Numbered from the stretch's first letter, positions 15,938-33,500 are shown. The stretch: 61,871 bases of DNA from a virus (IMGVR_UViG_3300024972_000005:1-61871), one strand, 5' to 3'. Notes: generated by a model from the sequence alone, not told the origin. Numbers and translations are program-made.

Positions 15938-15999
15938 TATAGCAAAGCTATACGTAAATGTAAAGCCATGCTATATATATTTTTTAATAGCATCGCTAT
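15938..15999. promoter_or_regulatory. OR-like operator region, three ATAGC-N3-GCTAT sites and divergent promoters
   Basis: TATAGCAAAGCTATA 15938-15952, AAAGCCATGCTAT 15962-15974, ATAGCATCGCTAT 15987-15999. Confidence 0.8.
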
Positions 16000-16701: not shown

Positions 16702-16745
16702 ACATTTTACATAAGCTATTAGCAGAAGCCATAAGGGAGATGTAA

Positions 16746-17027
16746 ATGCAAGAAAAACAAAAGAAAATACTTTTAATAGCTGCCGCTGCAATAGCATTAA
16801 GTGGGATATTTGCACCTATGCACGTTAAAAATACAAACCACATTCAATTCGATTGTGGCTACCGCATGATCAATTTCCCAACTGAAAATTGCTCACTACA
16901 GATTGATGACTTTGGGAATGTATATGACCGATCAAAGCGTGCAGAAATAAACGTATCTACATTAGCCATTGAATGGCTTGGTATTATGATTGTTGCAGGC
17001 CTACTATTTATATCAACAAAGGAATAG
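16746..17027 (+). CDS. Two-TM membrane protein downstream of cI
   Basis: Hydrophobic N- and C-termini, GGGAG RBS. Confidence 0.6.
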   Translation: MQEKQKKILLIAAAAIALSGIFAPMHVKNTNHIQFDCGYRMINFPTENCSLQIDDFGNVYDRSKRAEINVSTLAIEWLGIMIVAGLLFISTKE

Positions 17028-17030
17028 GCC

Positions 17031-17249
17031 ATGTCTAATCATGACGAATCTAAAGTTCAAATAGAAGGAACCTTAATTGCTATGGGATTTGTAATGTCCG
17101 CACTCATTAGAACGCACCCATCAAAAGCAAACCTATTACAAGCCCTGCAAGAAATCCTAAAAGGGGAAGGATCACTGTATGGGGAACTCCCCGCAGAAAT
17201 CCAAATCGTAGTTGACCAGCGTTTACATGAGTTGCTTTATCAGAATTAG
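17031..17249 (+). CDS. Hypothetical protein
   Basis: 72 aa, AAGGA RBS; overlaps convergent ORF. Confidence 0.45.
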   Translation: MSNHDESKVQIEGTLIAMGFVMSALIRTHPSKANLLQALQEILKGEGSLYGELPAEIQIVVDQRLHELLYQN

Positions 17250-17487
17250 CAAAAGAAATCTTTGAAAGCGCATTTGTACATACTGCTGCATTGCGCTCCC
17301 TCTCTTGCCTGGCATTTTCAAAATCACTTAACTCTTGAAGTGAATATATTTTATTCTCCACATTACGTGCAAGATTTACCTCTTCCATCGCAGACCTCGC
17401 CAACTGCGCGGCGGTCTTGGCTCCATCTTTCATCTGCCGATCTAATTCAGCCATCTTCTGAGCAAAAGTAATTTTTTCATTTTCCAT
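17107..17487 (-). CDS. Hypothetical protein with C-terminal TM
   Basis: 126 aa, AGGAG RBS; overlaps 17031-17249 on opposite strand. Confidence 0.4.
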   Translation of the reverse strand: MENEKITFAQKMAELDRQMKDGAKTAAQLARSAMEEVNLARNVENKIYSLQELSDFENARQERERNAAVCTNALSKISFANSDKATHVNAGQLRFGFLRGVPHTVILPLLGFLAGLVIGLLLMGAF

Positions 17488-17501
17488 GTTGTTCTCCTAA
17501 C

Positions 17502-17523
17502 GCCCTCAATCGAGGGCTTTTTT
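17502..17523 (+). terminator. Terminator of cI transcript
   Basis: GCCCTC-AATC-GAGGGC followed by T6. Confidence 0.7.
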
Positions 17524-17574
17524 GTGTCTGCAAATACTACGTTTTCATAGTACCTCAAAAATAATCAAAAATAT

Positions 17575-17614
17575 ATAGCAAAGCTATTGACATAGTATAG
17601 CATTGCTATATAAT
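17575..17614 (+). promoter_or_regulatory. PL-like promoter with two OL operators
   Basis: TTGACA 17587-17592, 16-bp spacer, TATAAT 17609-17614; operators ATAGCAAAGCTAT 17575-17587 and ATAGCATTGCTAT 17597-17609. Confidence 0.88.
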
Positions 17615-17636
17615 CACCACATCGAAGCAAGAAACG

Positions 17637-17864
17637 GTGATCGAAATGGACACAAACATCAACAGAATGAAGCGCGAACGAATGACCTGCCGTTGTGCAG
17701 CCTACCCGTTCCCACATCGCATTGATAGCAAAGCCTGCCGCGAACTTTATAACGCTACCCAGGCTGATCAGGAATCTTCTGCACCATTCAATCCTGATAT
17801 GGAATATGCGGTTAGCAGCTTATTCACACCTGACAACTCCCGTCCTGTGAGAAACCCACTATGA
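17637..17864 (+). CDS. Hypothetical early protein (CxC...H...C)
   Basis: First ORF after PL; TCRCAAYPFPHR motif. Confidence 0.55.
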   Translation: MIEMDTNINRMKRERMTCRCAAYPFPHRIDSKACRELYNATQADQESSAPFNPDMEYAVSSLFTPDNSRPVRNPL

Positions 17865-18058
17865 ACAGCCACATTCTACATCGTGACGTAAAAGGCGCTG
17901 GCATCTTGGAAACCATTACGCCGGTCTGTTCCTGCGGTTGGATCGGCATCGGTTACGCCGCACATAACGACTATCAGATCACTAATGTACGTGAGCAGGA
18001 ACAGAAGCATCTGCATACCGTGTCGCTTGATGTTCTGGTTAGAAAGGAATTGTCATGA
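17861..18058 (+). CDS. Hypothetical protein (CSCGW Zn-binding)
   Basis: Coupled ORF. Confidence 0.55.
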   Translation: MNSHILHRDVKGAGILETITPVCSCGWIGIGYAAHNDYQITNVREQEQKHLHTVSLDVLVRKELS

Positions 18059-18294
18059 ATACCAAGGCTGCAAAAACAATTTTAAGTGAAACCTCACTGA
18101 TGGCGGTATGCCTTTCCATTCTGTATTTAAGTGTGCTGGGTGTCATACAGGTGCGTGACGAATATCTGAACATTCAGGCCAAACAGGAAGTGGAGTGGTG
18201 TGAAACCTATTTCAACGAATCAATCGCCCTTGTGCCATGCACTGTACACGGCTACGGCACTAAATCAGCGCGAGTGGATTGGAAACGCAAATGA
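18055..18294 (+). CDS. Hypothetical membrane protein
   Basis: Coupled ORF with TM segment. Confidence 0.5.
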   Translation: MNTKAAKTILSETSLMAVCLSILYLSVLGVIQVRDEYLNIQAKQEVEWCETYFNESIALVPCTVHGYGTKSARVDWKRK

Positions 18295-18601
18295 TCATGG
18301 TCGATTACAAGAATCATCAGCCAGCTAGAAAACTGAATCAACGGAAATACCGGTTTGTGAAGGTGGCGATGGCGGCAGCGGTAACAGTAGTTTTATTCAG
18401 TTTAACTTTAGTGAGGATATATCAATGAATCAGTTTTTCTATGGCTTTCTTAGCGGTGGTTTGACGCTATTGGCCTTCAAGTACGTCATCGGTGTTATTG
18501 ACGATTACCAATACTACAGCACGCTTAAAAACGGCAATCGGCTAGTACATAGCAAATTGCGTGCTTTAAACAATGCTTTGAAAAATAAGTGAGGGCAAAT
18601 C

Positions 18602-19627
18602 ATGGACGACACAAACGCAATGGTTGCAGAAAACAATATGGTTGGAATGCTCAACAAGAGTGAGATTGACCAGCAGATTGCAACGGCACACAAATATCCG
18701 CGCTCTATCAAACGGTTTCGTGATGAAACCCTGCAGATGGTAACGCTTAATGAAAACGTGGCAGCAGAATGCATTTATTCGCTACCGAGGGATGGGAAAA
18801 CGATTGAAGGCGCAAGCGCACGCTTTGCCGAGGTAGTTGCATCAGCGTGGGGCAATAGTCGTGCCGGTGCGCGTGTTATTGATGATCGCGGTGACTTTGT
18901 AACTGCCCAAGGTGTATTTCACGACCTTGAAAAGAATGTGGCAATCACTTATGAAGTACAACGCCGTATTGTTGATAAATTCGGCAAGCGCTATAAGCCA
19001 GATATGATCACCGTCACTGCTAATGCGGCCTGCTCTATTGCACTTCGTAATGCAATCCTGAAAGGTGTACCAAAAGCCTTTTGGTCTGATATGTATGAGG
19101 CCGCACGCAAAACAGTGATGGGTGACTTTGCAACACTTGCTAATCGCCGCGCAAACGCCCTGGCTAAATTCCAGGCTTACGGTGTCACACCAGAACAGAT
19201 ATTTGCAACACTAGATGTGCAAGGCGTTGAGGACATTAGCCTTGAACACATTGCCACACTGGTTGGCATTATGACCGCCATCAAAGACGGTGACACAACG
19301 CCGGAAGAAGCCTTTGGCAGCGCCAAAAAGTCTGATGCCGCCCCTGCCGAAAAACCAGTGCTATCAGACGAGGAATTTCAAAAGCGCCTGAATAGCGAAT
19401 GGAAACCTGTCATTGCATCTGGCAAGAAAACGCCAGCACAGATCATCACCATGATTCATAGCGCAAACAAACTGACAGACGCGCAAATGCAAGCCATTAA
19501 TGCCACTGTTCCAGCAAACAAAGCTGAACAGAAAGCAGAACAAGAACCTGCAGCAGAAGCCGCAAAAAGTGATGTGCAAGATGACTTCGTAGCTGATATG
19601 ACAAAAGCTGAAAGCGAGAATAAATAA
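18602..19627 (+). CDS. Putative single-strand annealing/recombination protein
   Basis: EIDQQIATAHKYPRS...IEGASARFAE..WGN; coupled to YqaJ-like exonuclease. Confidence 0.6.
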   Translation: MDDTNAMVAENNMVGMLNKSEIDQQIATAHKYPRSIKRFRDETLQMVTLNENVAAECIYSLPRDGKTIEGASARFAEVVASAWGNSRAGARVIDDRGDFVTAQGVFHDLEKNVAITYEVQRRIVDKFGKRYKPDMITVTANAACSIALRNAILKGVPKAFWSDMYEAARKTVMGDFATLANRRANALAKFQAYGVTPEQIFATLDVQGVEDISLEHIATLVGIMTAIKDGDTTPEEAFGSAKKSDAAPAEKPVLSDEEFQKRLNSEWKPVIASGKKTPAQIITMIHSANKLTDAQMQAINATVPANKAEQKAEQEPAAEAAKSDVQDDFVADMTKAESENK

Positions 19628-21270
19628 TGATCACCCATGACTTAATTCAAGGCACACCAGAGTGGCATGAACACCGCGAAAAATATGACAATGCCAGCGA
19701 CTTGCCAGCCGCAGCAGGTGTAAGCAAGTATAAAAAACGTGATCAATTACTACAGGAATATGCCATTGGCATCAAACCTGAATTTAATGCTGCAACACAA
19801 GCAAGAATGGCAGATGGACACCGCTTTGAAGCATTGGCTAGACCTATTGCGGCGGCGCTTCTTGGTAAAAATCTTTATCCGGTCATCGGCACAGACGGCA
19901 CTCTTGGCGCTTCATTTGATGGCGTACCGGCAGATGATTCAATAGATTGGGAACATAAATCATTGAATGATGATATTCGTGCCTGCAATTCCGGCGATGA
20001 ACTTGATGAAATGTATAAATTGCAGATGGATCAACAGCTTTTAATTCTTGGTTCTGATACTGCATTATTTAGCGCAACGTCATGGGTGAGATCAATCGAG
20101 CCGACTGAACACCAGTTAATTGAAATCATTGATGGTGTAGAAGTGGTCACTTATTACACGCTACAAGAAGAAAAACACTTGTGGTACACCACCACACCAG
20201 AACGCAAACAGGCCGTGATTGACATTTGGGCGCAGTTTCATCGTGACCTTGATAATTACACACCGCCGGTGATCGCTGAAAAACTGGAAGCCAAAGCAAT
20301 CGAAGGCTTACCTACCCTATTCATTCAGGCCGTTGGCGAGATTACCACCAACAACATGAAAGAGTACGGGCAAGCACTGGCTAAACGTCTGAATGATGTG
20401 CGCCAGATTGTACTGGTGTCTGACCAAGACTTTGTGGACGCTAAAGCCGCAGCTAAACACTTGCGCGATAGCATTGAGCAGGCCAAGCAAGCAAAAGAAG
20501 CCATGCTGTCACAGACTGTTACCGTAGGTGAAGCGGCACGCATGATTGATGCTTGGTGCGAAGATATGCGCGTTACCGCTTTAAAACTTGAAAAAGACGT
20601 AGAGCGTGAGGACTTGGTTAAAAAAACCAAGATGATCACCGAGGCCAAAGGGAAATTCACCGGCATCATTGCGGCACTGGAAGCAGAAACCGCCCCGATT
20701 CGCCTGCAGTTATATTCACCTGATTTTGCAACCGCTATTAAAGGTAAGCGTAACTACGAGAGCATGCAGGGTGCTATCAATGATCTGTTGGCACAGTCAG
20801 AACGTGAAGCCAACAACCTGGCTAAAGACATTCGCACCAAACAAACATGGTTTAAATCACTCGACTGCCAATTCCCTATTTTTGCGGATCTGCAAACGCT
20901 TATTTATAAACCGGCTGACGATTTAAAATTGGCAGTGAATGCGCGTATTGCCGAGCATGAAAAGGCGCTGGCAGAGAATGAGGCCAAGCGTGCGGCGGCG
21001 CTTGCAGAAGCGGCGGTAAAAGCACAGGTTGCTCATGAAGCTGCACACATTGCCAGCGCCGACAAACCGATCCCAGACGGTTATGCTGTGACAAGCGCAG
21101 TTGTGATGGGTATTGACCCTACCGCCGGTGAAGATAAAACGGCTAAAACTTTCGGCAAGCGCCCTACCGCCCAAGCAATTATTAACCTAGTAGCCACCAC
21201 TTATAACGTTGATATTACAACAGCGCAGCGCTGGCTAACACAGTCATTTGCAGAAGCGAAAGCAGCATAA
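19627..21270 (+). CDS. YqaJ/lambda-exonuclease-like nuclease with coiled-coil C-terminus
   Basis: QGTPEWHEHR...ASD...GHRFEALAR...ASFDG...WEHK. Confidence 0.85.
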   Translation: MITHDLIQGTPEWHEHREKYDNASDLPAAAGVSKYKKRDQLLQEYAIGIKPEFNAATQARMADGHRFEALARPIAAALLGKNLYPVIGTDGTLGASFDGVPADDSIDWEHKSLNDDIRACNSGDELDEMYKLQMDQQLLILGSDTALFSATSWVRSIEPTEHQLIEIIDGVEVVTYYTLQEEKHLWYTTTPERKQAVIDIWAQFHRDLDNYTPPVIAEKLEAKAIEGLPTLFIQAVGEITTNNMKEYGQALAKRLNDVRQIVLVSDQDFVDAKAAAKHLRDSIEQAKQAKEAMLSQTVTVGEAARMIDAWCEDMRVTALKLEKDVEREDLVKKTKMITEAKGKFTGIIAALEAETAPIRLQLYSPDFATAIKGKRNYESMQGAINDLLAQSEREANNLAKDIRTKQTWFKSLDCQFPIFADLQTLIYKPADDLKLAVNARIAEHEKALAENEAKRAAALAEAAVKAQVAHEAAHIASADKPIPDGYAVTSAVVMGIDPTAGEDKTAKTFGKRPTAQAIINLVATTYNVDITTAQRWLTQSFAEAKAA

Positions 21271-21272
21271 CC

Positions 21273-21467
21273 ATGTACCGCCTTCTGATCGAGCGTGTCA
21301 GAAATAACCCACTTACAGGGGGCGTGCAATACAAGTGCATTAGTTGCAGGGTATCTAGGCAGACTGATTTTTACACATACCCAAATGAAAAAATGTTTTA
21401 CATGACCGTAAATCAGCCGCACAGAATTGGCACTTACATTAACCCACGCAAGGCACTAGGTGTTTAG
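21273..21467 (+). CDS. Hypothetical protein
   Basis: 64-aa ORF in operon. Confidence 0.4.
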   Translation: MYRLLIERVRNNPLTGGVQYKCISCRVSRQTDFYTYPNEKMFYMTVNQPHRIGTYINPRKALGV

Positions 21468-21494
21468 TTTTTTCATCAAGAAAAGGAGCATCAA

Positions 21495-21782
21495 ATGCAT
21501 CAAATTAATCAAACAATCAGAGCAAATTCTGCACCGGAAAAAGATGACCAGGTGACACTTGAAATGTCTGCATTAAATGAAGAATGCAGGACGCTTTTAG
21601 AACGGCTTGAACGGCTAACAGAAAGATTGTATCCGATACTGCTTAATGTTCCAGTTGCCTTAAAGGAGTGTGAAGAAACCAGTTATTTAGTGCCTCACGC
21701 CGCTGAAATTAAAGACAATAGATTGCTGGTTTCGGCGGCAAGCCAAAAGGTTCTTTACATCTTGGAAAACATACAAATCTAA
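21495..21782 (+). CDS. Hypothetical protein
   Basis: 95 aa, AAGGAG RBS. Confidence 0.6.
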   Translation: MHQINQTIRANSAPEKDDQVTLEMSALNEECRTLLERLERLTERLYPILLNVPVALKECEETSYLVPHAAEIKDNRLLVSAASQKVLYILENIQI

Positions 21783-21899
21783 GTTATGGGCGAAATTCAC
21801 CATCTAGTCGCGCTACGTAAATAGTCGGGCAGGAGCTAGAGCCGTCCATACGGAACAGGGATAGAAAAGTAGCCCACCCATTGAAAAGAAGGAACAAAA

Positions 21900-22493
21900 A
21901 TGAAACTCGCCGCATTTTATGACACAGAAACAACCGGACTGCCATTGTTTTCAGAGCCGTCAGAAGATCCGCGCCAGCCGCACATTGTTCAGTTGGCTGC
22001 AATCTTGGTGGACTTGGATAGCAAAAAGACCGTTCAGTCGATTGACTTGGTTATCAAGCCGCACGGATGGGTAATTACACCAGAGATCACAGAAATACAC
22101 GGCATTACACAAGAGTATGCCATGGACGTTGGTGTAAGTGAGGACGATGCCGCAAGCATTTTAATTGATATGGTTGGCAATCGTTTACGCATAGGCCACA
22201 ACGAACAGTTTGACGCAAGAATCATCCGTATTGCAGCCAAGCGCTACTTCGGCGAAGTAGTGGCTGATACGTGGAAGTCAGGTGAAGCCGAATGTACAGC
22301 CAGGCTATCAACAAAGCTGTGCAATCTGCCACCGACTGAAAAGATGATTGCAGCAAAGAAAAACTTTAATAAAACACCGAACCTTACCGAAGCGTACACG
22401 CATTTCTTTGGTAAGGGATTTGATGACGCACACACGGCGATGGCTGACGTGCTTGCGTGCCGTGATGTTTATTTTGCCGTTAAAGAGGCATAA
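21900..22493 (+). CDS. DEDDh 3'-5' exonuclease (DnaQ-like)
   Basis: YDTETTG, GHNEQFD, AHTAMAD motifs. Confidence 0.9.
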   Translation: MKLAAFYDTETTGLPLFSEPSEDPRQPHIVQLAAILVDLDSKKTVQSIDLVIKPHGWVITPEITEIHGITQEYAMDVGVSEDDAASILIDMVGNRLRIGHNEQFDARIIRIAAKRYFGEVVADTWKSGEAECTARLSTKLCNLPPTEKMIAAKKNFNKTPNLTEAYTHFFGKGFDDAHTAMADVLACRDVYFAVKEA

Positions 22494-22559
22494 AGGTTTA
22501 CGCCATCACAAAGTAGCACAGACGCACCATCAACTTAACCCAGAGAAGGAATATTAAAA

Positions 22560-23174
22560 ATGAAATCATCAGTTAAAGAAATTGAAACAATCATCGGCAC
22601 TGCTATGGGTGACGGGTTCTATGCTGGTCGCATCATGATCGACAATCAAGCCTTTGCCATCATCGTTGCACCAAAGAATGAAGGTGAACACCCAGATACA
22701 CAATGGCATGACAATTACGACAGCATTGAAGGTGCAACATCATACTTTGATGGCTTGGCAAACACTAATGCAATGGTAGAGGCCGGAAGCACCCTGGCTA
22801 AATGGGCGCGTGAATTACGCATCGGCGGTAATGATGACTGGTATCTGCCAAGTCAGGATGAACTGGAAATCATCTATCGTAACCTGAAACCAAATACACG
22901 CGAAAACTCATGCTATGCGCGTTCCGGCATTAATCTATCTTCCATTGAACCTACTCGCCCATACACCGAAAAGTTCCCGTTACAAACGCAAGCGGAGTTA
23001 TTCAAACAAGGTGGTGCAGAAGCGTTTGAAGCCGATTGGTATTGGACTTCAACTCAGCACGCCTCCGACGGTGGTTATGCGTGGGGTCAGTACTTCGACA
23101 TTGGCAGTCAGAACTGCGGCAACAAGGATGGCAGCCTTTGCAGGGCGCGTGCTGTCCGCAGATTGCCAATTTAG
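22560..23174 (+). CDS. DGR target protein 1 (DUF1566/Lcl-like C-type lectin fold)
   Basis: DWYLPSQDEL, WYWTSTQ, YAW, RARAVRR motifs; C-terminal VR1. Confidence 0.92.
   Translation: MKSSVKEIETIIGTAMGDGFYAGRIMIDNQAFAIIVAPKNEGEHPDTQWHDNYDSIEGATSYFDGLANTNAMVEAGSTLAKWARELRIGGNDDWYLPSQDELEIIYRNLKPNTRENSCYARSGINLSSIEPTRPYTEKFPLQTQAELFKQGGAEAFEADWYWTSTQHASDGGYAWGQYFDIGSQNCGNKDGSLCRARAVRRLPI
23055..23162 (+). repeat. DGR variable repeat VR1
   Basis: 108 bp; 19 mismatches to TR, 18 at TR adenines. Confidence 0.95.
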
Positions 23175-23211
23175 TCATTTAACAATTTGTTTTTAACAAC
23201 AGGAGTAATAC

Positions 23212-23673
23212 ATGAAAACAGTCACATTAGAAGCAATTGAAAAAGAACATCAGAAGGTTTCTGAATTAATTGCTCAATTCAAAGCACAGATCACTTCTCA
23301 ATTTGTTTTTCCTGAAACTGAAATTCAACTGGCTCACGGTGAGCATTATGCCGGTGTCATTCTCGGCAAAGATGGCGAATCAAGCTATCACCTTATTCTG
23401 TTGCCGGAAGATAAAGACGGTGGCAAATGGCAAGCCGCTATGGATTGGGCTAAATCAATCGGCGGCGAGTTGCCTACACGCCGCGAACAATCTCTGCTGT
23501 TTGCTAACTTGAAAGAAGAGTTTCAAGAGCAGTGGTACTGGTCTAGCGTCCAGCACGCCTCGTACGATGATTATGCATGGTCTCAGACCTTCAGCCTTGG
23601 CACTCAGGGCTCCAGCGGCAAGGATGGCAACAGTTGCAGGGCGCGTGCTGTCCGCAGATTAGTAATTGAATAA
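23212..23673 (+). CDS. DGR target protein 2 (DUF1566/Lcl-like C-type lectin fold)
   Basis: WQAAMDWA, GELPTRRE, WYWSS, RARAVRR motifs; C-terminal VR2. Confidence 0.92.
   Translation: MKTVTLEAIEKEHQKVSELIAQFKAQITSQFVFPETEIQLAHGEHYAGVILGKDGESSYHLILLPEDKDGGKWQAAMDWAKSIGGELPTRREQSLLFANLKEEFQEQWYWSSVQHASYDDYAWSQTFSLGTQGSSGKDGNSCRARAVRRLVIE
23551..23658 (+). repeat. DGR variable repeat VR2
   Basis: 108 bp; 17 mismatches to TR, all at TR adenines. Confidence 0.96.
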
Positions 23674-23701
23674 TTTAGTTTTTAAGGTTTAGGGAATCGA
23701 C

Positions 23702-24055
23702 ATGGCTATCCATACAGACTTACCAATTTACAAGGCAGCTTACGAGTTGCTAGATAAAAGCACAGATCTTGCCAAAAATATGCCTAGAGATTTTAAGGTG
23801 TCTATTGGTGGTGTAATCCGTGATGAATGTCTGGCAATTCTTGTGCTGGTTTTCCGCGCCAATGTTGCGCAGGATAAATCGAAACACCTTGTATCTTTGA
23901 TAGAGCGCTTACAAGTCGCAGAACTGATGTTGCGCCTATCAAGAGATAAACGACTAATCTCAATAAAGCAGTATGCAGAAGCAATTTTATTGACGGGCAG
24001 CATTGGTAAACAAGCTACTGGATGGCGCAAAGCAACTTTGTCGCCCGTTTCATAA
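23702..24055 (+). CDS. avd: DGR accessory variability determinant (four-helix bundle)
   Basis: 117 aa, LPIYK...MPRDFK.SIG...IGKQATGWRK; canonical position upstream of TR. Confidence 0.9.
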   Translation: MAIHTDLPIYKAAYELLDKSTDLAKNMPRDFKVSIGGVIRDECLAILVLVFRANVAQDKSKHLVSLIERLQVAELMLRLSRDKRLISIKQYAEAILLTGSIGKQATGWRKATLSPVS

Positions 24056-25458
24056 TGGTTACGGCCAATATGACTGAGCGTAATTTTAATCTGGTTTTGC
24101 CGCTAGCTCAAAAGGCTACCGCCATGCGCGAAATAGATACCACTGACAGTAGTCAGGTTCGGTCTGGCGCAGTTTCTAAAATGATAGGTGAAAATCTTCG
24201 TTTTGGTGACGTAGATAGCAAGACAAATAACAGCACGCCTCAAACGATGATTATGCATGGTATCAGAACTTCAACAATGGCAATCAGAACTACAACAACA
24301 AGGATAACAACAATTGCAGGGCGCGTGCTGTCCGCAGACGAAAACAATCACAACAATGTCGATTTCTCTTTTACAGAATTGGCGCAAGCCTATTTTGATT
24401 GCAGAAAACATAAACGCAATACAGCAAGCGCACTTGCGTTTGAGCAAAACTTAGAGCGCAATTTACTGGCGCTTTATGATGAATTATTGGATGGCACATA
24501 TCAGCCAGGCACTTCGATTTGCTTTGTCATTACCAGGCCGAAAGCACGCGAAGTGTGGGCGGCTGATTTCCGTGACCGGATTGTGCATCACCTGTTCTAC
24601 AACAAAATATCACCACGCTTTTACGCATCATTCATCGTAGACAGTTGCGCATGCATACCTGGGCGCGGAACGCTGTATGCGGCAAAACGTCTTGAATCAA
24701 AAGTGCGTAGCATTACCCAGAATTGGAGCGTGCCAGCCTTTTATCTTAAATGTGACTTGGCTAACTTCTTTGTAAGTATTGATAAAGACGTGTTGTTTAC
24801 ACAAATCGCCAAAAAAGTAACCGAGCCTTGGTGGTTGGCTTTAGCAAAGACAATTCTCTATCACGACCCTCGCACCGATTACACCTTCAAAGGCAAGCCG
24901 CAATCCATTGAGTTAGTGCCGGCACATAAACGCTTGACTAACCAGCCTGGAAAGCTAGGTTTGCCTATTGGAAATCTGTCATCACAGTTCTTTGCAAATA
25001 TCTATTTGAATGAGCTTGATCAGCACATTAAACATCGCATCGGCGCGAAATATTACATTCGATACGTTGATGACTTCTTACTGCTGCATCACAGCCCACA
25101 GTGGCTAAACGCAGCGCTTGCAGACATTAATTCATTCTTGCCATCGCGGTTAAATGCGAATCTGAACCCAAGCAAAACAATACTGCAGCCTATTGATCGT
25201 GGCGTTGATTTTGTAGGACAGGTCATCATGCCTTGGCATCGGGTGACGAGAAAACGCACGGTGAATGAAGCGATACGCCGTATCAATATCACGCCGGATA
25301 GCGAGTTGTTTGAGGTTGCAAATAGCTATTTTGGTTTACTTGGTCAGGCATCAAAAAGCCAAAAATCAAGAGCAAGAATCGCAAACGCCCTACGCTGGCG
25401 TGGGCACACAATCAACAAGGCATTATCGAAAACATATAGGAAGGTTGATCATGGCTAA
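24022..25458 (+). CDS. DGR reverse transcriptase (true start uncertain, between 24022 and 24379)
   Basis: FRDRIVHH, LKCDLANFF, GLPIGNLSSQFFANIYL (DGR-type SQ), YIRYVDDF, GVDFVG motifs. Confidence 0.95.
   Translation: MAQSNFVARFIMVTANMTERNFNLVLPLAQKATAMREIDTTDSSQVRSGAVSKMIGENLRFGDVDSKTNNSTPQTMIMHGIRTSTMAIRTTTTRITTIAGRVLSADENNHNNVDFSFTELAQAYFDCRKHKRNTASALAFEQNLERNLLALYDELLDGTYQPGTSICFVITRPKAREVWAADFRDRIVHHLFYNKISPRFYASFIVDSCACIPGRGTLYAAKRLESKVRSITQNWSVPAFYLKCDLANFFVSIDKDVLFTQIAKKVTEPWWLALAKTILYHDPRTDYTFKGKPQSIELVPAHKRLTNQPGKLGLPIGNLSSQFFANIYLNELDQHIKHRIGAKYYIRYVDDFLLLHHSPQWLNAALADINSFLPSRLNANLNPSKTILQPIDRGVDFVGQVIMPWHRVTRKRTVNEAIRRINITPDSELFEVANSYFGLLGQASKSQKSRARIANALRWRGHTINKALSKTYRKVDHG
24231..24338 (+). 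ncRNA. DGR template repeat (TR)
   Basis: 108 bp rich in AAC/AAT (11 AAY codons in VR frame, 39 adenines), between avd and RT. Confidence 0.95.
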
Positions 25459-25527
25459 ACATCGCAACCAAAAAGGCGGCAAACGCCGCAACCGTAAAGA
25501 GATCAGGAAGCAGAAAGGTCATGTTGT

Positions 25528-25842
25528 ATGAGCATCAATATAAATATCGACTACGCGGCAGATGATAGCTGCCAGATTAAATTATGGGCAAAGGGTAATT
25601 ATAAAGCTGATGAATTTCTGGCGGCTTGTGAAGAAGCGTTAAAAGAGTGGGATGACAGAATTTTATCCTTGTCTGGGAAACTTATTAGGCACGCGCACTG
25701 GCGCACTATAAAAGCAGATTCAGAAACAAAAAGTCATGGAGTATCTGATTACATTCGCATTGAATCGAAGCAAGGCAAAGGCGCATATCTTGTTACGGAG
25801 CTTGTTGAATGGCTGCCTCTTTTTACAGAAGAAAGGAAATAG
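25528..25842 (+). CDS. Hypothetical protein
   Basis: 104-aa ORF. Confidence 0.55.
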   Translation: MSININIDYAADDSCQIKLWAKGNYKADEFLAACEEALKEWDDRILSLSGKLIRHAHWRTIKADSETKSHGVSDYIRIESKQGKGAYLVTELVEWLPLFTEERK

Positions 25843-25843
25843 G

Positions 25844-26062
25844 ATGCACGTAGATAAGATTACACCAATTTGCCCACATTGCGATTTTGAATTTGGAGCA
25901 GATGAAATGCTAAATGCAGGTGTTGATTTATATGCTTTAGCGCCAAATGAAGAAGAAGCAGACATTATTTGTCCGTATTGTGACCAAAATTTTGTCGTAA
26001 AGGGTGGATATATTCCAACTTATACAACTGCATTTTCACATGAAGAAATTGAATATAGTTAA
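25844..26062 (+). CDS. Small Zn-ribbon protein
   Basis: CPHC...CPYC; start reassigned to MHVDK. Confidence 0.6.
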   Translation: MHVDKITPICPHCDFEFGADEMLNAGVDLYALAPNEEEADIICPYCDQNFVVKGGYIPTYTTAFSHEEIEYS

Positions 26063-26072
26063 GGATTAACCC

Positions 26073-26513
26073 ATGACTAACGTACAGGAAGCATTAAATA
26101 ATGCACTTTTTACAATTCGGTGTTACAGGACTGAAATTACACTTGATAAGAAAAGACCGAATGACTTAATCGAAGTTGATTTAGTCATATCTAAAATTGA
26201 TGCCGCACTATCCGAGATAGAGAAGTGTGAGCCAGTGGCATACGATAAAAATAAGATTCGTTCAGAAGTAATGAGTAAATCTCCGATACCTTTTGGCGTA
26301 TGCGATGCTATAGATTTGACTATGCAAGCCATGGAACGTTTTATTACATCACCGCAGCCTCGTGAGTGGGTAGGGTTAAGTGAAGAAGATATTCGCGGAT
26401 TAGTAGTAGCTCAAAATAATGCACGATTAATTGAAGATTGCCTTCCAGAAGATTTACAAAAATTAGCAGATGCAATCACCGCCAAACTCAAGCAACTAAA
26501 CACGGAAGGTTAA
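26073..26513 (+). CDS. Hypothetical mosaic phage protein
   Basis: EPVAY and REWVGLSEEDI motifs common in small phage early proteins. Confidence 0.6.
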   Translation: MTNVQEALNNALFTIRCYRTEITLDKKRPNDLIEVDLVISKIDAALSEIEKCEPVAYDKNKIRSEVMSKSPIPFGVCDAIDLTMQAMERFITSPQPREWVGLSEEDIRGLVVAQNNARLIEDCLPEDLQKLADAITAKLKQLNTEG

Positions 26514-26515
26514 TC

Positions 26516-26845
26516 ATGAGATTAATAGATGCAGATGCTTTGTTGGAAGCAATGAGAAAAGAAGATGTGCTAAAAGTATATGAATGTATAAAGTTAGTAA
26601 CCAACGCCCCCACTATTCAGCGTGAAGGACGGGTAAGTGTAGAGGATACGAAGCGATTGAACTGGCTTGAAAACGAAATAGTTAGTGTTGATACGTTTGA
26701 AATGGATGAATCGTTTGGGTGGATTTTTACTCAATATTATTTAGGTGAAAAAGAGCCCAGAGAAATACACCGAAGCTTTTTAGAAGATTTAAGAAAAGCT
26801 ATTGACGAAGCCATGATTCAAGCCGCACCAACAGATACGGAGTAA
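26516..26845 (+). CDS. Hypothetical protein
   Basis: MRLIDADAL...LRKAIDEAM. Confidence 0.6.
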   Translation: MRLIDADALLEAMRKEDVLKVYECIKLVTNAPTIQREGRVSVEDTKRLNWLENEIVSVDTFEMDESFGWIFTQYYLGEKEPREIHRSFLEDLRKAIDEAMIQAAPTDTE

Positions 26846-27576
26846 TGAAGATGATTAAATGTAATGTATGCGGATATGAAGATAACGGAACTGGTGATAG
26901 CGCTCATGCATGTCGTGCGCCAGATAAACACATGAGCGAACAATATAAAAATGCAGTATGTAGAGGTTCATGGGCATTAGGTTCAGCTTGCGGGAAATGT
27001 GAGCGATGCATAGAAACTAATCCGAATAAATCTAAATGCATGAGCGAACAAAATACAGCGTTTGAGAAAATAATATCTAATATGAAATGGGGTAAAAAAT
27101 TAGATATTGACTTGAGAAAAGATGGGGCGGTTTACCCTTACAAATATGACCTCGCTAATATTTTATTTGAATTGTTTCAAGCCGCCACTCTCGAATCAGC
27201 AAAACGTATCGCTGAACTTGAGGGTGAGATTGCGGAATTGAAAAGTAAATGCGAATCGTTAGATATTGAATTTGACCAAAGAGATGATAAAAGGCTTGCA
27301 CAAATTGCCGAACTCCAATCCAATAATAATGATTTGCGTGAGGCTTTGGGAAACGCCCGTATATTAGCCGACGAAATATTAAACGGACAGCAAGCGAGTG
27401 ATGTTTTAGCGATGAGAATTATGAGTGTAGCAGATACCGCCCTAGCCGCAACACCAGCCGAATCACTGGCGAAGCATGATGATGAGGTGATTGAGAAAGT
27501 TATATTTGTTATCAACCAATATTACGACATTAACCATATAAGAGATGATGTGATCCGCGAATTGAAAGGTAAATGA
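26845..27576 (+). CDS. Hypothetical coiled-coil protein with Cys-rich N-terminus
   Basis: 243 aa, coupled ORF. Confidence 0.6.
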   Translation: MKMIKCNVCGYEDNGTGDSAHACRAPDKHMSEQYKNAVCRGSWALGSACGKCERCIETNPNKSKCMSEQNTAFEKIISNMKWGKKLDIDLRKDGAVYPYKYDLANILFELFQAATLESAKRIAELEGEIAELKSKCESLDIEFDQRDDKRLAQIAELQSNNNDLREALGNARILADEILNGQQASDVLAMRIMSVADTALAATPAESLAKHDDEVIEKVIFVINQYYDINHIRDDVIRELKGK

Positions 27577-27577
27577 T

Positions 27578-27811
27578 ATGCACAATATATTTTTAACAAA
27601 TGATGAAGTCGCAGATCTTACGGGCATCAAACGTGGTCACGATGGAAAGACCAAAGTGCAATTGCAGTGCGAACATTTGGCACGCATTGGCGTTCCATAC
27701 CGACCCAATCGTTTGGGTGAACCAAAGGTAAGTCGTGAATATATCAACTATTCAACCAAGCAAGAAATTAAACCTGCAGCAAATTGGCAGCCAGCTATTT
27801 TATCTGCATAA
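27578..27811 (+). CDS. xis: Putative excisionase (DUF4224-like)
   Basis: FLTNDEVADLTG...Q...L...GVPY...GEPKV directly upstream of integrase. Confidence 0.75.
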   Translation: MHNIFLTNDEVADLTGIKRGHDGKTKVQLQCEHLARIGVPYRPNRLGEPKVSREYINYSTKQEIKPAANWQPAILSA

Positions 27812-27826
27812 AAAAAGGATTATATT

Positions 27827-28882
27827 GTGCGGTCTATGGGGCGTGTTCCAACTAAGAACTTAAACCTTCCAAAAGGTATGAGAGCTAGACCGCAAAAATC
27901 TGGCAAGATTTACTATTATCTTGATCTGGGTGGGAAGCCTCGTAAAGAAATTCCATTGGGCGATGATTATGCAATAGCCATAAAGAAATGGGCTGAACTA
28001 AGCGAAAATATACTTCCGGCATCGGCACAGGTTACATTCCGCATGGTATGGGAAAGATATGCAAAAAACAATATGAATGATCTAAGCATATCTACACAAA
28101 AAGACTATATAAAATGTAGTCGTCAGCTACTTAAATTCTTTGACGATCCACCAGCGCCACTTGATTCAATCAGACCTGTTCATATAGTTCAATACCTTGA
28201 GTGGCGTAAAGATGCAAAGGTGCGTGCAAATCATGAGCGCAGATTATTTAATCTATTGTGGAATATGGCGCGATCATGGGATTACACTACGTTAGCCAAC
28301 CCATGCACCGGAATTGATGGGTATATAGAAAAATCGCGTGATGTTTATATAGAGGATGAAATATATAACGCGGTTTATCAGCAGGCAGATTATCCACTTA
28401 AAGATGCGCTTGATTTAGCCTACCTTACCGCACAAAGACCGGCAGACGTAATAAAAATGTCAGAAACAGACATTAAAGAAGGTGTGCTATTTGTTAAGCA
28501 GAACAAGCGTGATGCAAAATTAAGAATTGCCATTAAAGGTGAATTGGAAACTCTGCTCAAGCGCATACAAACACGTAAAGAATTGTTTAAGGTTCGCAGC
28601 CTGGCGTTAATAGTGAGTGAAACAGGCAAGCCTCTGTCGCAACGTGCTATATGGGAAAGATTTGATAAGGCGCGTAAACAAGCTGCTCTAGTCAATCCAA
28701 AGTTAAAACTTGATATTGAAGCCTATCAGATAAGAGATTTGCGTGCCAAGGGCGGAACTGACAAAGCCATTGAAAGTGACGATATGCGTCAGGCACAAAA
28801 ACTACTAGGCCACTCAAGCGTTACTATGACGGAGCGGTATGTAAGGCGTAAACGTGGTGAGAAAGTAGAGCCTACAAAGTGA
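27827..28882 (+). CDS. int: Tyrosine integrase
   Basis: TAQRPAD (R), QNKR (K), RDLRAK, LLGHSS, TERY catalytic motifs. Confidence 0.93.
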   Translation: MRSMGRVPTKNLNLPKGMRARPQKSGKIYYYLDLGGKPRKEIPLGDDYAIAIKKWAELSENILPASAQVTFRMVWERYAKNNMNDLSISTQKDYIKCSRQLLKFFDDPPAPLDSIRPVHIVQYLEWRKDAKVRANHERRLFNLLWNMARSWDYTTLANPCTGIDGYIEKSRDVYIEDEIYNAVYQQADYPLKDALDLAYLTAQRPADVIKMSETDIKEGVLFVKQNKRDAKLRIAIKGELETLLKRIQTRKELFKVRSLALIVSETGKPLSQRAIWERFDKARKQAALVNPKLKLDIEAYQIRDLRAKGGTDKAIESDDMRQAQKLLGHSSVTMTERYVRRKRGEKVEPTK

Positions 28883-28888
28883 TAATTT

Positions 28889-29086
28889 CGCTCCGCAAAA
28901 TAAAATAGTACCGCGCCACTATTGACTTTCAAGCATGGTAAAAATCAATAATTGAGGAGCGGAAATCACCCTGAAAGTGGCGAATTTATTGAATAGTGTA
29001 GATGGATGCTCTATCCACTGAGCTACGGGGGCAGCGCCTTATTTTATGAGGTTGATGATTTATTGATTGCGGAGCGCTCCGCAAAA
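28889..29086. other. Putative attP with tRNA-derived core (29001-29032, minus) and arm-type repeats
   Basis: Minus strand GCCCCCGTAGCTCAGTGGATAGAGCATCC is a tRNA 5' half; CGCTCCGCAAAA at 28889 and 29075; palindrome TTGCGGAGCGCTCCGCAA 29067-29084. Confidence 0.8.
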
Positions 29087-29118
29087 ATGAATAAAACTAA
29101 AAATATTGCGTACCAGAA

Positions 29119-30342
29119 TCATACCGTATAAACCTGCTTTTCGGAAGTTGTTGCCGCTTTAGATCCTGCCAGCCGGTCACGTATTTCCTGTATCGGTAAA
29201 AGCCTGCGCCCCATTTCGCCATAGGTTTTTGAACGCAAGATTACCGTGATTGATTTGCGGTTGCGAAAACCAAAATCGTGCGCCCACCTATCCATTGCAG
29301 CTAATTGATTGAAGGATTCCACCACGATGCCAGGGTGTTCTTTTAACACCATGCCATGATGAATATGCCCTATGTCTATGTAGTGAAATTCTGTTTCACC
29401 ATAGTCTTTTCGGAAATCATTGGTCATCACATGGACTAACTGACTAGGTTTGCATTTATCGGAGTGATGCGTCATGACCAGGGTGTTACCCATGCGGTAA
29501 GCAATAAATACCGTGTCGTTATTAAGCACGTTTACGCGCCCTGTGTGACCGTAGGCCACGCGCAGTAATTCAGCCATCCATATATCATTGGTGCGGCTAT
29601 GGTTGCCTTGGTTGACGATCACATCAACGTTTTGCGCTTTGGTAAGCGCTTTCTCAACAATGAATCGCATGACCCTTGAATAGACTTTAATCATCTTGGG
29701 AAAGCGCGTGTCATAGTCGAGCGCATGACCGCTGGCTTCCGTTGTGCCTGCAAAATTTTCGTAGTGTGTGAAATCGCCAACGTCATTAATGACCATTCGC
29801 TCACACATTGGCAATTCATCAATCAATATCCCGATGGCTGCACATATTTCCGTTTCTGCAATCTTTAAATCGAAGTTTTCGCCAATTTCGGCAGCATGCG
29901 CCAGCATGCCTAAATGGGCATCCCCTATTTCAATCCACGGGATAATGTCATTCTGGTAGTCAAGCGGCGCAGGCAGCACGTTAATTGCTGGCATATCCTG
30001 TATAAAGTGTTCAACGGTTTCCTTAATTAGCTCTAGGTATTTCTGGCTGTCTAACTTGGTTTTAACCCACCCGATCACCGGCTTGCCATCTTTGTACAGG
30101 GTAGAATGACCTGATACCACGTAAGGTTCTGGCACGGTATGTGTCATATCATGATCCGGCGAGAATCCTTGTGTCGCGGCTTTCTTGCGTAACAGTTTCA
30201 TGCTGTTTTGGATCGTCTGCCGTGATACACCTAATTGCCTAGCGGCTTCATGCAGGTTTAACGTTGCATTAATCGCATCAATGTATTCCAGTTGTCTAAT
30301 TGTTGCCCACTCTTTTAACGCTTCGTCTATCTTGGCAGTCAT
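29119..30342 (-). CDS. HTH-fused calcineurin-like metallophosphoesterase
   Basis: GDAHLG, VGDFTH, GNHS, THH, GHIHH motifs; N-terminal HEAARQLGVSRQTI HTH. Confidence 0.85.
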   Translation of the reverse strand: MTAKIDEALKEWATIRQLEYIDAINATLNLHEAARQLGVSRQTIQNSMKLLRKKAATQGFSPDHDMTHTVPEPYVVSGHSTLYKDGKPVIGWVKTKLDSQKYLELIKETVEHFIQDMPAINVLPAPLDYQNDIIPWIEIGDAHLGMLAHAAEIGENFDLKIAETEICAAIGILIDELPMCERMVINDVGDFTHYENFAGTTEASGHALDYDTRFPKMIKVYSRVMRFIVEKALTKAQNVDVIVNQGNHSRTNDIWMAELLRVAYGHTGRVNVLNNDTVFIAYRMGNTLVMTHHSDKCKPSQLVHVMTNDFRKDYGETEFHYIDIGHIHHGMVLKEHPGIVVESFNQLAAMDRWAHDFGFRNRKSITVILRSKTYGEMGRRLLPIQEIRDRLAGSKAATTSEKQVYTV

Positions 30343-30525
30343 AATTACTCCCATGAAAAAGCCCCGTAAAGAGGCCGCTGATTTGTTCGGTGAATAGTGC
30401 CCTATTTATACCCCACATACCGGCGTTAAATTTGCTAGTATGTGGTTTTGAAGTTTGGGTCACTATGGATAAGCTATTTTTAGTAATTGGCTGGATCATA
30501 CTAGGCGGCTTTGCAGTTGCTTCAC

Positions 30526-33500
30526 TTATTCGCCTGTTTCTGTCCTGGCTATAAACAGTTCATTAAAGCGAAGCATTCTGGCGGTGATGCGCTCATTCAG
30601 CATTTTGATTTCTTCCGGCGCTGCATCTACCTTGATTCGGTCTGATCGCATTTTATGAAGCTGACTGATCTCGCGTTGTTCCAAATTAGCGCGGAATACC
30701 AGTGCGGCCTCTGGGTGGCTGGCGCGATACTCTGACGTGTCGATGCCGTCCTTGCGCATCCCCTTCAATTCGGTTTCAGTTTCAAACACGGCTTTCAGGT
30801 TGTCATAAAAACGTGAACTTTGTGATGACTGGCCTTCTGCATCAAGATAAAACCTGCCGACTAGCGGTATTTTGTACACCGGCAAATCCTCGCCCGTTGT
30901 CATGGAAGTCGCGGTCTGTTCCAGCTTCATGTATTCGCGGCCTACGCCACCAGTGAGCTGCCCTATCAGGTAATCAATCTGGTCTGGGGTCGGACTTAAA
31001 GCGCCTGGGGTGTAGTCAGTGCCGCCGGTTGCAGCGTTGATGTAGTAAGACAAAGCCTTGCTAATTGCGCTGGCAGTATCTTTGGCACGGGTATGACCTG
31101 CTGTTGGTTTTTGCGCATTGAAATCCATTTTAGCAATCGGGCGATTAGTCCAGTCCTTGTTTTCTGCCAAGGCCGCAACCGGATCTAGGATGGTCGGCGC
31201 AATCGTCTGCATGGATAAACCAGCATTCCCGATCGGGTTGGTCACGTCTGCCAACATATCAAAGATGTGTACAAAGCGCTTGCTGGTGTCCTTGCCGCCG
31301 GATAGTGCCCATTCAGTCAGAATGCGACCGAAGGCAGGCAGCGCATTGAATCCCAACGGCATGGCAATCGTGATCGCTTTTTTGTTGCCAAGTGGGATAA
31401 TCAGGTTGCGGTCACGCACAAAATCAGGTGGTTCATCATCACCAAAGCCAGCCGCCGCCAACATTAAAGCCTGCATGACACCGAGCAACAGGCCACCGGT
31501 AACAATCGCTTTACCGGCCTTGCTTAATGTCAGTTTCCCATTGTTGTCTGTAAACAGGGTTTCACCGATACGCGCAGTACCTTGTACGGAAGCATTAAAG
31601 AAGGCGTAAAGCGAACCGATTTGCCTGCCCATTTCACCTTTGCGGTTAAAGTTCACGCTGATGTTTTTGGCAAGACTAGCGGCCTGCGCTTTCGCCATGC
31701 CGTTATCAAGCCCGACCTTATAGGCAGACAGGCGCACCGCATTTTCCATTGATTCGTTGTAATCGCTCAACCAGTCAAATATGTATTGCTGGCCTTTCTC
31801 GATCAGGAATTGCTCTGGTTTAGCCAGGATGCCATTAATGCTGACGATCTTGCCTGCAGTCGTCTGCTGCCACCAAGTCGGGTCAAGCGCGTGCCGTAAT
31901 GCCTCGCCGCGCTCTTTTGCGTTGCGGAACATATCACGGTAGCCGGTCTGACCACCTTGCTTTTGGAAGTCCTCAAACAATAATGACCAGTAAGAGTTAG
32001 TTGGCGTGCCGGTCTTGCGCTCACTGCGAATGTCATTGTAGATGCCAATCAAGGCCAATGGCGTATTTTTTAATACGTCCACTTGCTTGCCGCTTAGAGG
32101 GGTGGAACTAAGGTTCAGCAATGAACCCTGTACGTCACGCAGAATATTGATCACACCGAAGAACGGGTTGTACTGCGTGTTAATGCTTGAGAAATAACGG
32201 GTAATTCTGGCTGACGTGCCAAGCAGTTCACCGATCTGGTCTTGATCTAGGTTCTTGATTGCCGCTGCAGAACGCATCGCACGTTCATCGTGTGTATTGA
32301 ACTCAACAAAGTGTTCTTCAATCTTGCCATTGGCGTTGACGATACGTGCCACTACAACATTATCGCGGCTCTTGTAGCTCGGATCTGGCACGTCCATTAC
32401 CAAGTCCTGACCTTTGACCACATTCAGCGTATAGCCTGCGCCATTCCACTGAATGAACTTGTTGGCCTCGACAGGATTTGTGAAGGGCTGCACCAGAGAA
32501 CCGTTGTACAGCACTTCGTAACTATTTTTACCGGCAACCACGGTGCGCATTGTCGGCACAACATCGACTTTCCAAAAGTCTTTATTCGGGTTAAGTGTCG
32601 CTAAACCCACCAGCGCGGTCGATACGCGGTTTTTTTCACCGCGGATGATGTTACGCTCCACCTGCTGCGCGATGTTCGCCAGAACGTCCACCACGGCACG
32701 ATTAGAGCCGGTTGCGCGTTTGGAAGCATTGCCTTTTACGCTAAAGCCTTGGCCTGAACCGTTGCCGAAGCCATTATCCATATCTTCACGCATCAATGGT
32801 ACATAGTGCTGATACGCACCTTCCCAGGCTGCAATCGTTTCCGGTGTTTCAAGTCCGTAGCTAATCAGGCGTTGACGTGAATTTTTAAGAATCGCGTCCA
32901 CTTTTGCGGCTAGTGCCTGATAATTGGCTGACTGCACCGGTGTCAGGTTCGCAAGATAGTCGCGTGCGTCCTGTGTTGTCATACCAGAACCGCCGTCCTG
33001 CATTGCCGGATTAATCTTGGCGATTTGAATATTGCGTTCTTCGGCATGACGTGCCCACAAGTATTCTTCAAAGTCAGCCATATCCACTTTACGCGCCTGC
33101 ATGGATTTCATCAGCGGCTCTAACTCATGCTTAATGAAGTCCTTGGTACGTGTTGCGGTACGTCCGGTATAGAGTTCTTCCTGCAGGTATGGATTCCACT
33201 TGTCATCAATACTGTTACCGGCCTTCTGAATGCCCTGTATGACGCGCTTCAAGTCCACGAACTTGTTTTGCAGCATATAGATGACGTTATCCAGTTTGCT
33301 TTTATCTGGGTTTTGCCATTGCTGGTTCGGTGTATTGGATTGAACTACGGGTGAAAGGCGCGGTGTTGGTTTTGAATAAGCAGAACCAATGGTGTAATGC
33401 GTCACTTTGCTAGGTGATTTCAGGCTATCCAGTGCGCGAGTAACCAAAACTCTGACTTCACCATCTGATACTGTCAGGTTCATGCCTAATCTGCGTAAGA

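Follow-up and report, generated by a model that had tools for sequence, protein, structure and literature searches.

Diversity-generating retroelements (DGRs) of phages are read almost by default as tail-fibre host-range devices, and most DGR targets have no known function. What, then, is diversified by a phage DGR whose two small target genes lie between recombination genes and an integrase? This question is raised by the cassette at 22560-25458 of the virus record IMGVR_UViG_3300024972_000005:1-61871, hereafter the window (the entire virus record of 61,871 nt, not a fragment). A sequence-only reading of the window had described a dual-target DGR that diversifies two cytoplasmic lectin-fold proteins. 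Here we report that the cassette is a canonical DGR that has been active in nature, that it is independent of virion architecture and belongs to a large lineage, and that its targets act, with a probability slightly better than even (about 0.55), as early non-virion binders in the infected cell.

The cassette comprises two targets with their variable repeats (VRs), a template repeat (TR), an accessory gene, a structured RNA and a reverse transcriptase (RT):

22560-23174, + strand: Target 1 (T1), 204 aa, stand-alone Lcl_C/DUF1566 protein of C-type-lectin fold (PF07603, 3.8e-11)
23055-23162, + strand: VR1, encoding T1 residues 166-201; 19 mismatches to TR, 18 of them at TR adenines
23212-23673, + strand: Target 2 (T2), 153 aa, lectin-fold domain preceded by an N-terminal helix (residues 6-26)
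23551-23658, + strand: VR2, encoding T2 residues 114-149; 17 mismatches to TR, 17/17 at TR adenines
23702-24055, + strand: avd, accessory variability determinant, 117 aa, pI 9.7 (bAvd PF22296, 4e-13)
24039-24230, + strand: RT-15 RNA (Rfam RF03018), 192 nt, matched over its full length (158.9 bits, cut-off 82, E 2e-39)
24231-24338, + strand: TR, 108 nt, aligning to VR1 and VR2 without gaps
24361-25458, + strand: DGR reverse transcriptase, homology-supported region (RVT_1, 1.5e-15; phrog_1423, 7e-115)

Realignment reproduced exactly the repeat coordinates and mismatch counts given by the sequence-only reading. The sole non-adenine mismatch in VR1 was T>G (TR 24261, VR1 23085). TR contained 39 A in 108 nt (36% A) and 11 AAY codons; 15^11 comes to about 8.6e12, in keeping with the earlier estimate of some 10^13 variants per target. 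Both VRs were in frame at the 3' ends of their open reading frames (ORFs), inside the C-type-lectin-fold domain. No fourth copy of the repeat was present in the whole 61,871-nt record, and no other gene carried a VR. A G+C-rich stretch, GGGCGCGTGCTGTCCGCAGA, closes TR, VR1 and VR2, is identical in all three, and marks the point after which homology stops.

TR was flanked, as had been described, by avd and an SQ-motif RT, and both assignments were borne out by family matches. Avd exceeded the PF22296 cut-off (50.2 bits versus 40) and matched phrog_3206, 'Avd protein of DGR' (1.7e-30). The [I/L]GxxxSQ motif defines DGR-type reverse transcriptases; in the window it was found as IGNLSSQ at RT residue 203, with YVDD at residue 235. 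Identity to the RTs of other TR/VR-bearing cassettes was 65-89%. The RT ORF is open from 24022 through TR, with no well-placed in-frame ATG after TR; GTG 24325 and TTG 24379 are candidate starts. RT-15 ends directly before TR in the window and in all nine relatives searched (L004-L008, L010, L012, L016, L017). Because of this adjacency in 9/9 related loci, RT-15 apparently forms a structured leader at the 5' end of the template RNA of this DGR lineage; no paper tying RT-15 to DGRs was found in the literature. With avd, the RT-15 RNA, the SQ-motif RT and the TR/VR set, the cassette is a canonical DGR.

Variation in natural populations was concentrated in the VRs. Parts of the cassette were held by 22 public runs, mostly freshwater-sediment metagenomes of one year that may belong to one campaign. 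Logan contigs, not reads, of four runs (X2, X4, X6 and X7) were aligned to 22000-26000. Record 2 of X2 (23024-25519) had 20 differences from the window, 19 in VR1 and one in VR2; record 9 of X4 (22000-23536) had 19, all in VR1; and records 18, 19 and 20 of X6 had 19, 1 and 0. In the long contigs of these three runs differences occurred only within the VRs, avd, RT-15, TR and RT being identical. Two alternative 157-nt contigs covered VR2 in X4, with 1 and 22 differences, and contig breaks tended to fall at VR edges. Among the variable VR sites listed, 25/26 were at TR adenines (VR1 18/19, VR2 7/7). Protein cluster P0122 corresponds to T2 with 12 substitutions, all in VR (residues 118-140) and none elsewhere. 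The adenine-restricted polymorphism that the sequence-only reading had proposed looking for was therefore present, in contigs of three samples. Because otherwise identical contigs differ in the VRs at TR-adenine positions, the DGR has been active in nature.

A decaying relic with old VR/TR differences is barely credible on these data. One non-adenine mismatch in VR1 and the failure to find a hairpin or IMH* signature (IMH, initiation of mutagenic homing) would fit such decay; however, the VRs vary between samples and within one sample at TR-adenine positions, every ORF is intact and the RT retains its motifs. The lone non-adenine mismatch, at 23085, is private to the window, X2, X4 and X6 carrying the template base T.

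One contig joint in X6 runs from 22504 to 25448, skipping 2943 nt (T1 through RT) with only about 30 nt on the far side, and sets the DnaQ-like gene beside the small basic ORF at about 25455. Summed contig depth in X6 was also higher on the cassette flanks, contig depth not being a fair measure. Both observations fit, as a hint, a cassette-less variant; if real, the joint marks the borders of an insertion module. A further thirteen listed differences, at 22031-22463, come from X6 and X7 contigs that represent diverged relatives. The exact 38-nt T2 pattern had no match in the metagenome contigs, a set that may omit the records nearest the window.

The surroundings of the cassette bear on when its targets would be made. 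The relevant features are as follows:

15939-15951 and 15987-15999: operator cores just upstream of the cI-like gene
16000-16701, + strand: cI-like repressor (phrog_4 transcriptional repressor, 2.9e-28; phrog_6201 CI-like repressor)
17502-17517: terminator-like hairpin preceding the PL-like promoter
17575-17587 and 17597-17609: operator cores flanking or overlapping the PL-like promoter, bracketing its -35 and -10
17587-17614, + strand: PL-like promoter, TTGACA-16-TATAAT, 12/12 consensus matches
21900-22493, + strand: DnaQ/RNase_T-like exonuclease adjoining the cassette upstream (PF00929, 2.2e-14; phrog_192, 1.2e-36)
27578-27811, + strand: xis (DUF4224, 7e-7; excisionase PHROGs)
27827-28882, + strand: tyrosine integrase, int (Phage_integrase, 1.6e-19), at the distal end of the early-left array

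The order on the + strand is cI-like gene, hairpin, promoter, small ORFs, a phrog_3657 protein, a RecE-like exonuclease, the DnaQ-like gene, T1, T2, avd, RT-15/TR, RT, six small ORFs, xis and int, and every gene from 17637 through int lies on that strand. The PL-like promoter was the sole perfect consensus site in 15000-29200. The operator core ATAGC-N3-GCTAT occurs in exactly four copies in the genome. Because these cores are common to the PL-like promoter and the region upstream of cI, the array is best read as a repressor-controlled early-left operon. The targets lie about 5 kb downstream of the operator-flanked promoter, between the DnaQ-like exonuclease and xis/int, and the promoter with its shared operators upholds the PL placement claimed earlier. 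No terminator-like site of more than six stem pairs was found on the + strand in the scan of 18875-29028, and no + strand promoter-like site in the consensus scan of 19008-26073. The operator/promoter layout is that of lambda PL, from which early timing would be predicted. This part of lambdoid genomes usually houses anti-restriction and anti-RecBCD genes.

Both targets have a C-type-lectin fold. T1 passed the Pfam gathering cut-off for PF07603 (43.8 bits versus 34.9), and an AGGA Shine-Dalgarno-like stretch precedes its gene. T2 alone remained under the cut-off (4.3e-5, 24.2 bits); many T2 relatives carry PF07603, and the T2 profile matched 8q4e, the C-terminal domain of Legionella Lcl, with E 2.7e-4. 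This was the sole solved relative by sequence profile and also the best PDB match of the T1 AlphaFold2 (AF2) model (predicted local distance difference test, pLDDT, 79.9; E 7e-4) and the best Foldseek match of the T2 model (pLDDT 91.6; E 9e-5, TM 0.61 on target, 107 columns). The next structural matches were the C-terminal domain of Bdellovibrio Bd2740 and animal C-type lectin-like domains. Relatives formed 1135 clusters for T1 and 1853 for T2, and the family alignments combined a conserved scaffold with hypervariable columns exactly at the VR-encoded positions.

T1 and T2 could be aligned with each other only over the last 67 residues (48% identity). Both are acidic and have no conserved cysteine pair. 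T1 has an insertion of about 45 aa (residues ~105-150) that is strongly conserved in 51 relatives and was modelled with low confidence. Neither target contains a hydrophobic stretch, the highest 19-residue Kyte-Doolittle mean being 1.04 in T1 and 0.60 in T2. Hydropathy, Pfam and the AF2 models thus agree with the earlier description of proteins of 204 and 153 aa with a lectin fold and no transmembrane segment. Family searches and models revealed no effector domain on either target. A fibre-joining N-terminal domain is absent from T1, and T2 has one 21-residue helix.

The cassette is widespread among relatives. Viral contigs scanned with T1 gave 11 loci, and species-representative genomes scanned with the T2 alignment gave 78. 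The 78 bacterial loci were nearly all from Betaproteobacteria (Paraburkholderia, Massilia, Janthinobacterium, Cupriavidus, Rhodocyclales, Gallionella, Methylophilus and others); 62 had an RT downstream on the same strand and 69 had at least two target-like frames, so the survey of homologous cassettes once suggested as a check has an outcome. A homologue of the window's integrase was found in 20/78 loci, in every case downstream and on the same strand. At least two adenine-biased VRs per TR were present in 58 of the 62 betaproteobacterial prophage loci with an RT (41 with two, 16 with three and 1 with four), and 1673/1715 mismatches in the 62 loci were at TR adenines. Nine loci had a single target-like frame: two were truncated at contig ends, and no avd or RT was nearby in the short locus L096 or in six loci whose flanks were complete. 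Cassette genes were carried by 10/11 viral-contig loci, and the lineage was present in 6 complete viral contigs. With tblastn, a T2-like protein was found in only 9/50,697 phage records. The window's layout, which runs on one strand from the targets through avd, RT-15, TR and RT to int, recurred in four cultured phages: Shewanella vB_Sb_QDWS, Burkholderia Magia, Burkholderia vB_E192a and Pseudomonas Cruim01.

Targets are paired in the relatives as T1+T2, T2+T2 or T1+T1, and some loci hold three or four; in several, a third target lies 3-8 kb upstream. In Magia, no annotated same-strand gene lies between the immunity repressor and this third target. Many T2-type paralogues have no N-terminal helix and align only from T2 residue ~39; they consist of a lectin domain of about 110-125 aa alone and have no part that could serve as an anchor. 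Because relatives pair T2+T2 or T1+T1, or hold three or four targets, an obligate form of the T1:T2 heteromer that had been entertained is disfavoured. The rarity implied by the sequence-only reading was wrong as well: the window is one member of a large lineage, found in Betaproteobacteria, in which several small DGR targets are the rule.

Several of these elements are unannotated in cultured phages. Gene 46 of Magia (L005; 7830-8294), annotated as hypothetical, contains a third VR at 8184-8274 with 11/11 mismatches at TR adenines. Phages vB_Sb_QDWS (L004), Cruim01 (L006) and vB_E192a (L007) hold complete two-target DGRs not annotated as such, their RTs being labelled retron-type or RNA-directed DNA polymerase. 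Neither a DGR nor a reverse transcriptase is mentioned in the vB_E192a paper (PMC12860723) or the Cruim01 paper (10.1101/2024.05.07.591244).

Comparison with a sister phage, G001, separated the cassette from the virion. The two phages share DnaQ (90% identical), the SbcD-like protein (85%), the giant protein (90%), the portal (89%) and the major head protein (94-100%), with 78-85% nucleotide identity over most of 42400-61871. G001 is contiguous across the slot, and no T2-like or RT sequence was found anywhere in it by queries that do find the window's copies. Its slot instead holds three small ORFs, one encoding a Lar-family restriction-alleviation protein (39.2 bits versus 28.6; L098 9069-9317). 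A second relative without a T2-like or RT match, G002, was not counted, as its contig ends inside the slot. Conversely, the window's portal and major head protein each lacked a homologue at E <= 0.001 in all four cultured cassette phages. Magia is a myophage according to the accessible part of its announcement (PMC7883833). Since the sister shares the virion genes without the cassette, and cassette phages lack the window's portal and capsid, the cassette is independent of virion architecture and dispensable for this virion. It moves independently of virion genes, which makes an essential receptor-binding role very unlikely. That the targets are not the phage's tail fibre, as claimed earlier, is well supported by the same two observations. 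Searches of the literature on relatives returned no virion proteomics for any of them.

Two fibre parts in the window are oddly placed, with the small terminase gene on one side and the large one on the other: an ORF of 110 aa whose N-terminus is of tail-fibre type (3441-3773, - strand), followed by a 249-aa Laminin_G_3 (ConA-like lectin) protein (2692-3441). The genes that the sequence-only reading had listed as fibres indeed carry no VR, and its assignment stands for 3441-3773 as tail fibre and for 2692-3441 as lectin; it fails for 4170-4598, which matched a head-protein PHROG, and for 46057-47349, which matched no family.

The early intracellular binder is favoured because the targets combine an early, repressor-controlled position with a minimal architecture and no export signals, and because the relatives hold several paralogues and the cassette is modularly present or absent. 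In the explanation we favour, diversification follows the standard DGR mechanism: Avd, the RT-15-led TR RNA and the SQ-motif RT make a copy of the 108-nt template that carries errors at adenines, and this copy replaces the 3' ends of two paralogous target genes. The cassette would be a self-contained accessory module between the DnaQ-like exonuclease and the small basic ORF. T1 and T2 are small, acidic and signal-less, and each amounts to hardly more than one lectin-fold domain with a randomised C-terminal binding face. They would be made early after infection or induction, not as parts of the virion, and would serve in the infected cell as soluble hypervariable binders of strain-variable molecules of the host or of rival elements, useful variants being picked by selection among phage lineages. 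A cytoplasmic location is plausible, the basis being gene position and the lack of export signals. The Lar-family gene in the sister's slot was counted in favour of this reading.

Several points weigh against it. Virion proteins have no export signals either, and this feature therefore does not discriminate between cytoplasmic and virion proteins. In the accessible text of two sources (PMC8144416, 10.1101/2023.09.22.558884), the DGR targets of tested function all bind outside the cell. The nearest solved folds, the C-terminal domains of Lcl and Bd2740, are extracellular adhesin tips; in other phages the same domain terminates fibre-like proteins with Peptidase_S74 or collagen-repeat parts; and the N-terminal helix of T2 weakly resembles the trimerising collectin neck and could attach to a fibre. 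The variable sites were taken from the differences listed, beside which 118 further difference rows exist, and the X7 contig, with 46 differences over 1119 nt, represents a more distant relative whose differences were not placed. Of candidate determinants of one-way homing, neither an IMH/IMH* difference between the TR and VR ends inside the repeat nor a hairpin or cruciform downstream of the VRs was found (folds of the VR flanks versus shuffles, z = -0.37 and +0.48). Finally, by BLAST, Lar-like neighbours occurred in only 2 further loci of 105. The Lar link is anecdotal, and a general association with the cassette slot is not claimed. A Lar-like zinc ribbon (28.5 bits, cut-off 28.6) was also observed in protein P0112, in frame with a T1 homologue that keeps the MKSS start.

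The adhesin-like folds and the possibly trimerising helix would suit accessory virion parts, that is, receptor-binding or adhesion tips or decorations docked on fibres or capsids as in phage BPP-1; the DGR would then widen host range or environmental adhesion, and the early-operon position would be coincidental. Split fibre-like genes are indeed present, at 3441-3773 and 2692-3441, and small prophage-encoded targets have been read as tail-fibre receptor binders in the accessible part of one study (10.1101/2024.11.15.621889). We nevertheless regard such a role as unlikely: the repressor-controlled early-left operon houses the targets in every relative examined, the same-virion sister lacks the cassette and phages with unrelated portals and capsids have it, and many paralogues are bare lectin domains without a docking part.

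A different intracellular role would be that of lysogen-side sensors or neutralisers of incoming phages, acting in superinfection exclusion or defence. The available portions of 10.1101/2023.09.22.558884 and PMC10053308 propose that bacteria possess DGR-diversified lectin sensors in the cytoplasm, and most family members were found as prophages in bacterial genomes. However, the operator-controlled promoter ahead of the cassette should be shut in the lysogen, the consensus scan offered no alternative + strand promoter in 19008-26073, and the targets are without an effector domain, which makes this role quite improbable. Release at lysis as soluble lectins that mask receptors on debris or neighbours, or bind matrix polysaccharide, is very doubtful. 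The Lcl_C fold is a carbohydrate-binding adhesin domain, and for proteins with no export signal lysis would be the sole exit, but early expression is unnecessary for such a role, no precedent was found in our literature searches and nothing specific in the data favours it.

The early intracellular binder can be given a more specific form, which we put forward as a tentative possibility. The lineage may be an evolvable counter-immunity kit, in which a DGR of the early operon would randomise the binding faces of two to four free lectin-fold proteins; produced from the onset of phage gene expression, these would bind and block strain-variable defence or rival-element proteins. Its carriers would be temperate phages of Betaproteobacteria and some Gammaproteobacteria, for which the kit would play the part of an antibody repertoire. 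The invariant insertion of ~45 residues in T1 would then be a constant face recruiting a fixed partner.

Among known systems, the BPP-1 DGR (mtd-avd-TR-brt) resembles the cassette in part order, C-terminal VR, adenine mutagenesis, AAY-rich template and a lectin-fold variable domain. In BPP-1 the one target, Mtd, is a 381-aa protein that forms the trimeric tip of the tail fibre, and its gene stands among the structural genes. The window differs from BPP-1 in its two small stand-alone targets, their early-left operon, the 192-nt RT-15 located 5' of TR and the absence of a post-VR hairpin in our searches. Mtd-type targets are encoded with, and dependent on, a tail gene set, and T1 and T2 are not. 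Some of these features of Mtd are also given in the 2018 survey by Wu et al. (PMC5758913). The accessible text of that survey assigns DUF1566-only targets to category 'd' (14% of DGRs, half of them short), does not discuss gene position within phages, and includes the Legionella pneumophila DGR (DUF1566, CLec2 VR), whose target is of the same PF07603 family as T1 and T2. Legionella LdtA carries an export signal and is a lipoprotein of the cell surface; T1 and T2, encoded by early genes of a phage, carry no such signal. Viral targets are sorted into 'structural' and 'unknown' in the portion of Roux et al. 2021 available (PMC8144416).

The homologous cassette of Burkholderia phage Magia (MT701587; RT 66% and Avd 64% identical to the window's) likewise has RT-15 RNA and several short lectin-fold targets between recombination genes and int; it differs in having three T2-type targets and no homologues of the window's portal and capsid. 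The accessible part of its announcement (PMC7883833) places the targets in 'relatively short reading frames' 47 and 57 and proposes adaptation or host range, without comment there on the early-operon position. In the conflict systems of Thiohalocapsa PB-PSB1, as far as the available text describes them (10.1101/2023.09.22.558884), DGR lectin domains are predicted to be cytoplasmic and to bind foreign molecules; those targets are large, cellular and fused to STAND NTPase or signalling domains, whereas T1 and T2 are phage-encoded and consist of the binding domain alone. Cytoplasmic DGR targets for cellular conflict systems are proposed in the same text and in the accessible part of PMC10053308. 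Lcl, the best structural match for both targets at 17-23% sequence identity, is a secreted collagen-like adhesin that is not diversified, in contrast to T1 and T2. Paired phage DGR targets have been described in gut phages, according to the available parts of PMC10743442 and PMC11792537. In our literature searches, no paper was found on the early-operon position, virion uncoupling or non-structural role of phage DGR targets, and the supplements of the surveys may list the lineage.

The window itself was 95% complete according to CheckV. Because the two 762-nt ends of the record (1-762 and 61110-61871) are repeats of 98% identity and the large terminase gene continues across their junction, the genome is closed at about 61.1 kb, although the record is labelled 'linear'. 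The 2% mismatch between the terminal repeats suggests that two strains were merged in assembly. The phage is temperate, of about 61 kb and from freshwater sediment, and the relatives of its targets suggest a betaproteobacterial host. No tRNA gene was found in the window.

Outside the early-left array, a 3956-aa 'polyvalent' protein (30526-42396, - strand) carries InPase, LPD1, ART-PolyVal and LPD38 domains and PHROG matches to families of DarB-like antirestriction proteins and DNA methyltransferases. It probably serves counter-defence as an injected multi-enzyme protein, and the phage would therefore already be heavily invested in counter-defence. A 520-aa protein with a methyltransferase-like stretch (52294-53856, - strand) lies within the structural gene block, and an SbcD-like DNA repair exonuclease (29119-30354, - strand) lies beside the integrase end. 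In the sister phage (G001:C1:53971-55827), the match to the major head gene of the window is split into two pieces (residues 1-97 and 97-315) about 900 nt apart, which could reflect an intron, an intein or a homing-endonuclease insertion.

The lineage described here fits the tail-fibre default poorly, with two to four minimal hypervariable binders encoded among early genes and independent of virion architecture. This suggests that phages also use targeted hypermutation beyond tail fibres. Culturable cassette phages exist, which makes the function directly testable. If the binders do act inside the cell, targeted hypermutation would be a phage tool of counter-defence or host takeover, and the targets would be natural disulfide-free scaffolds of 110-200 residues selected for intracellular targets.

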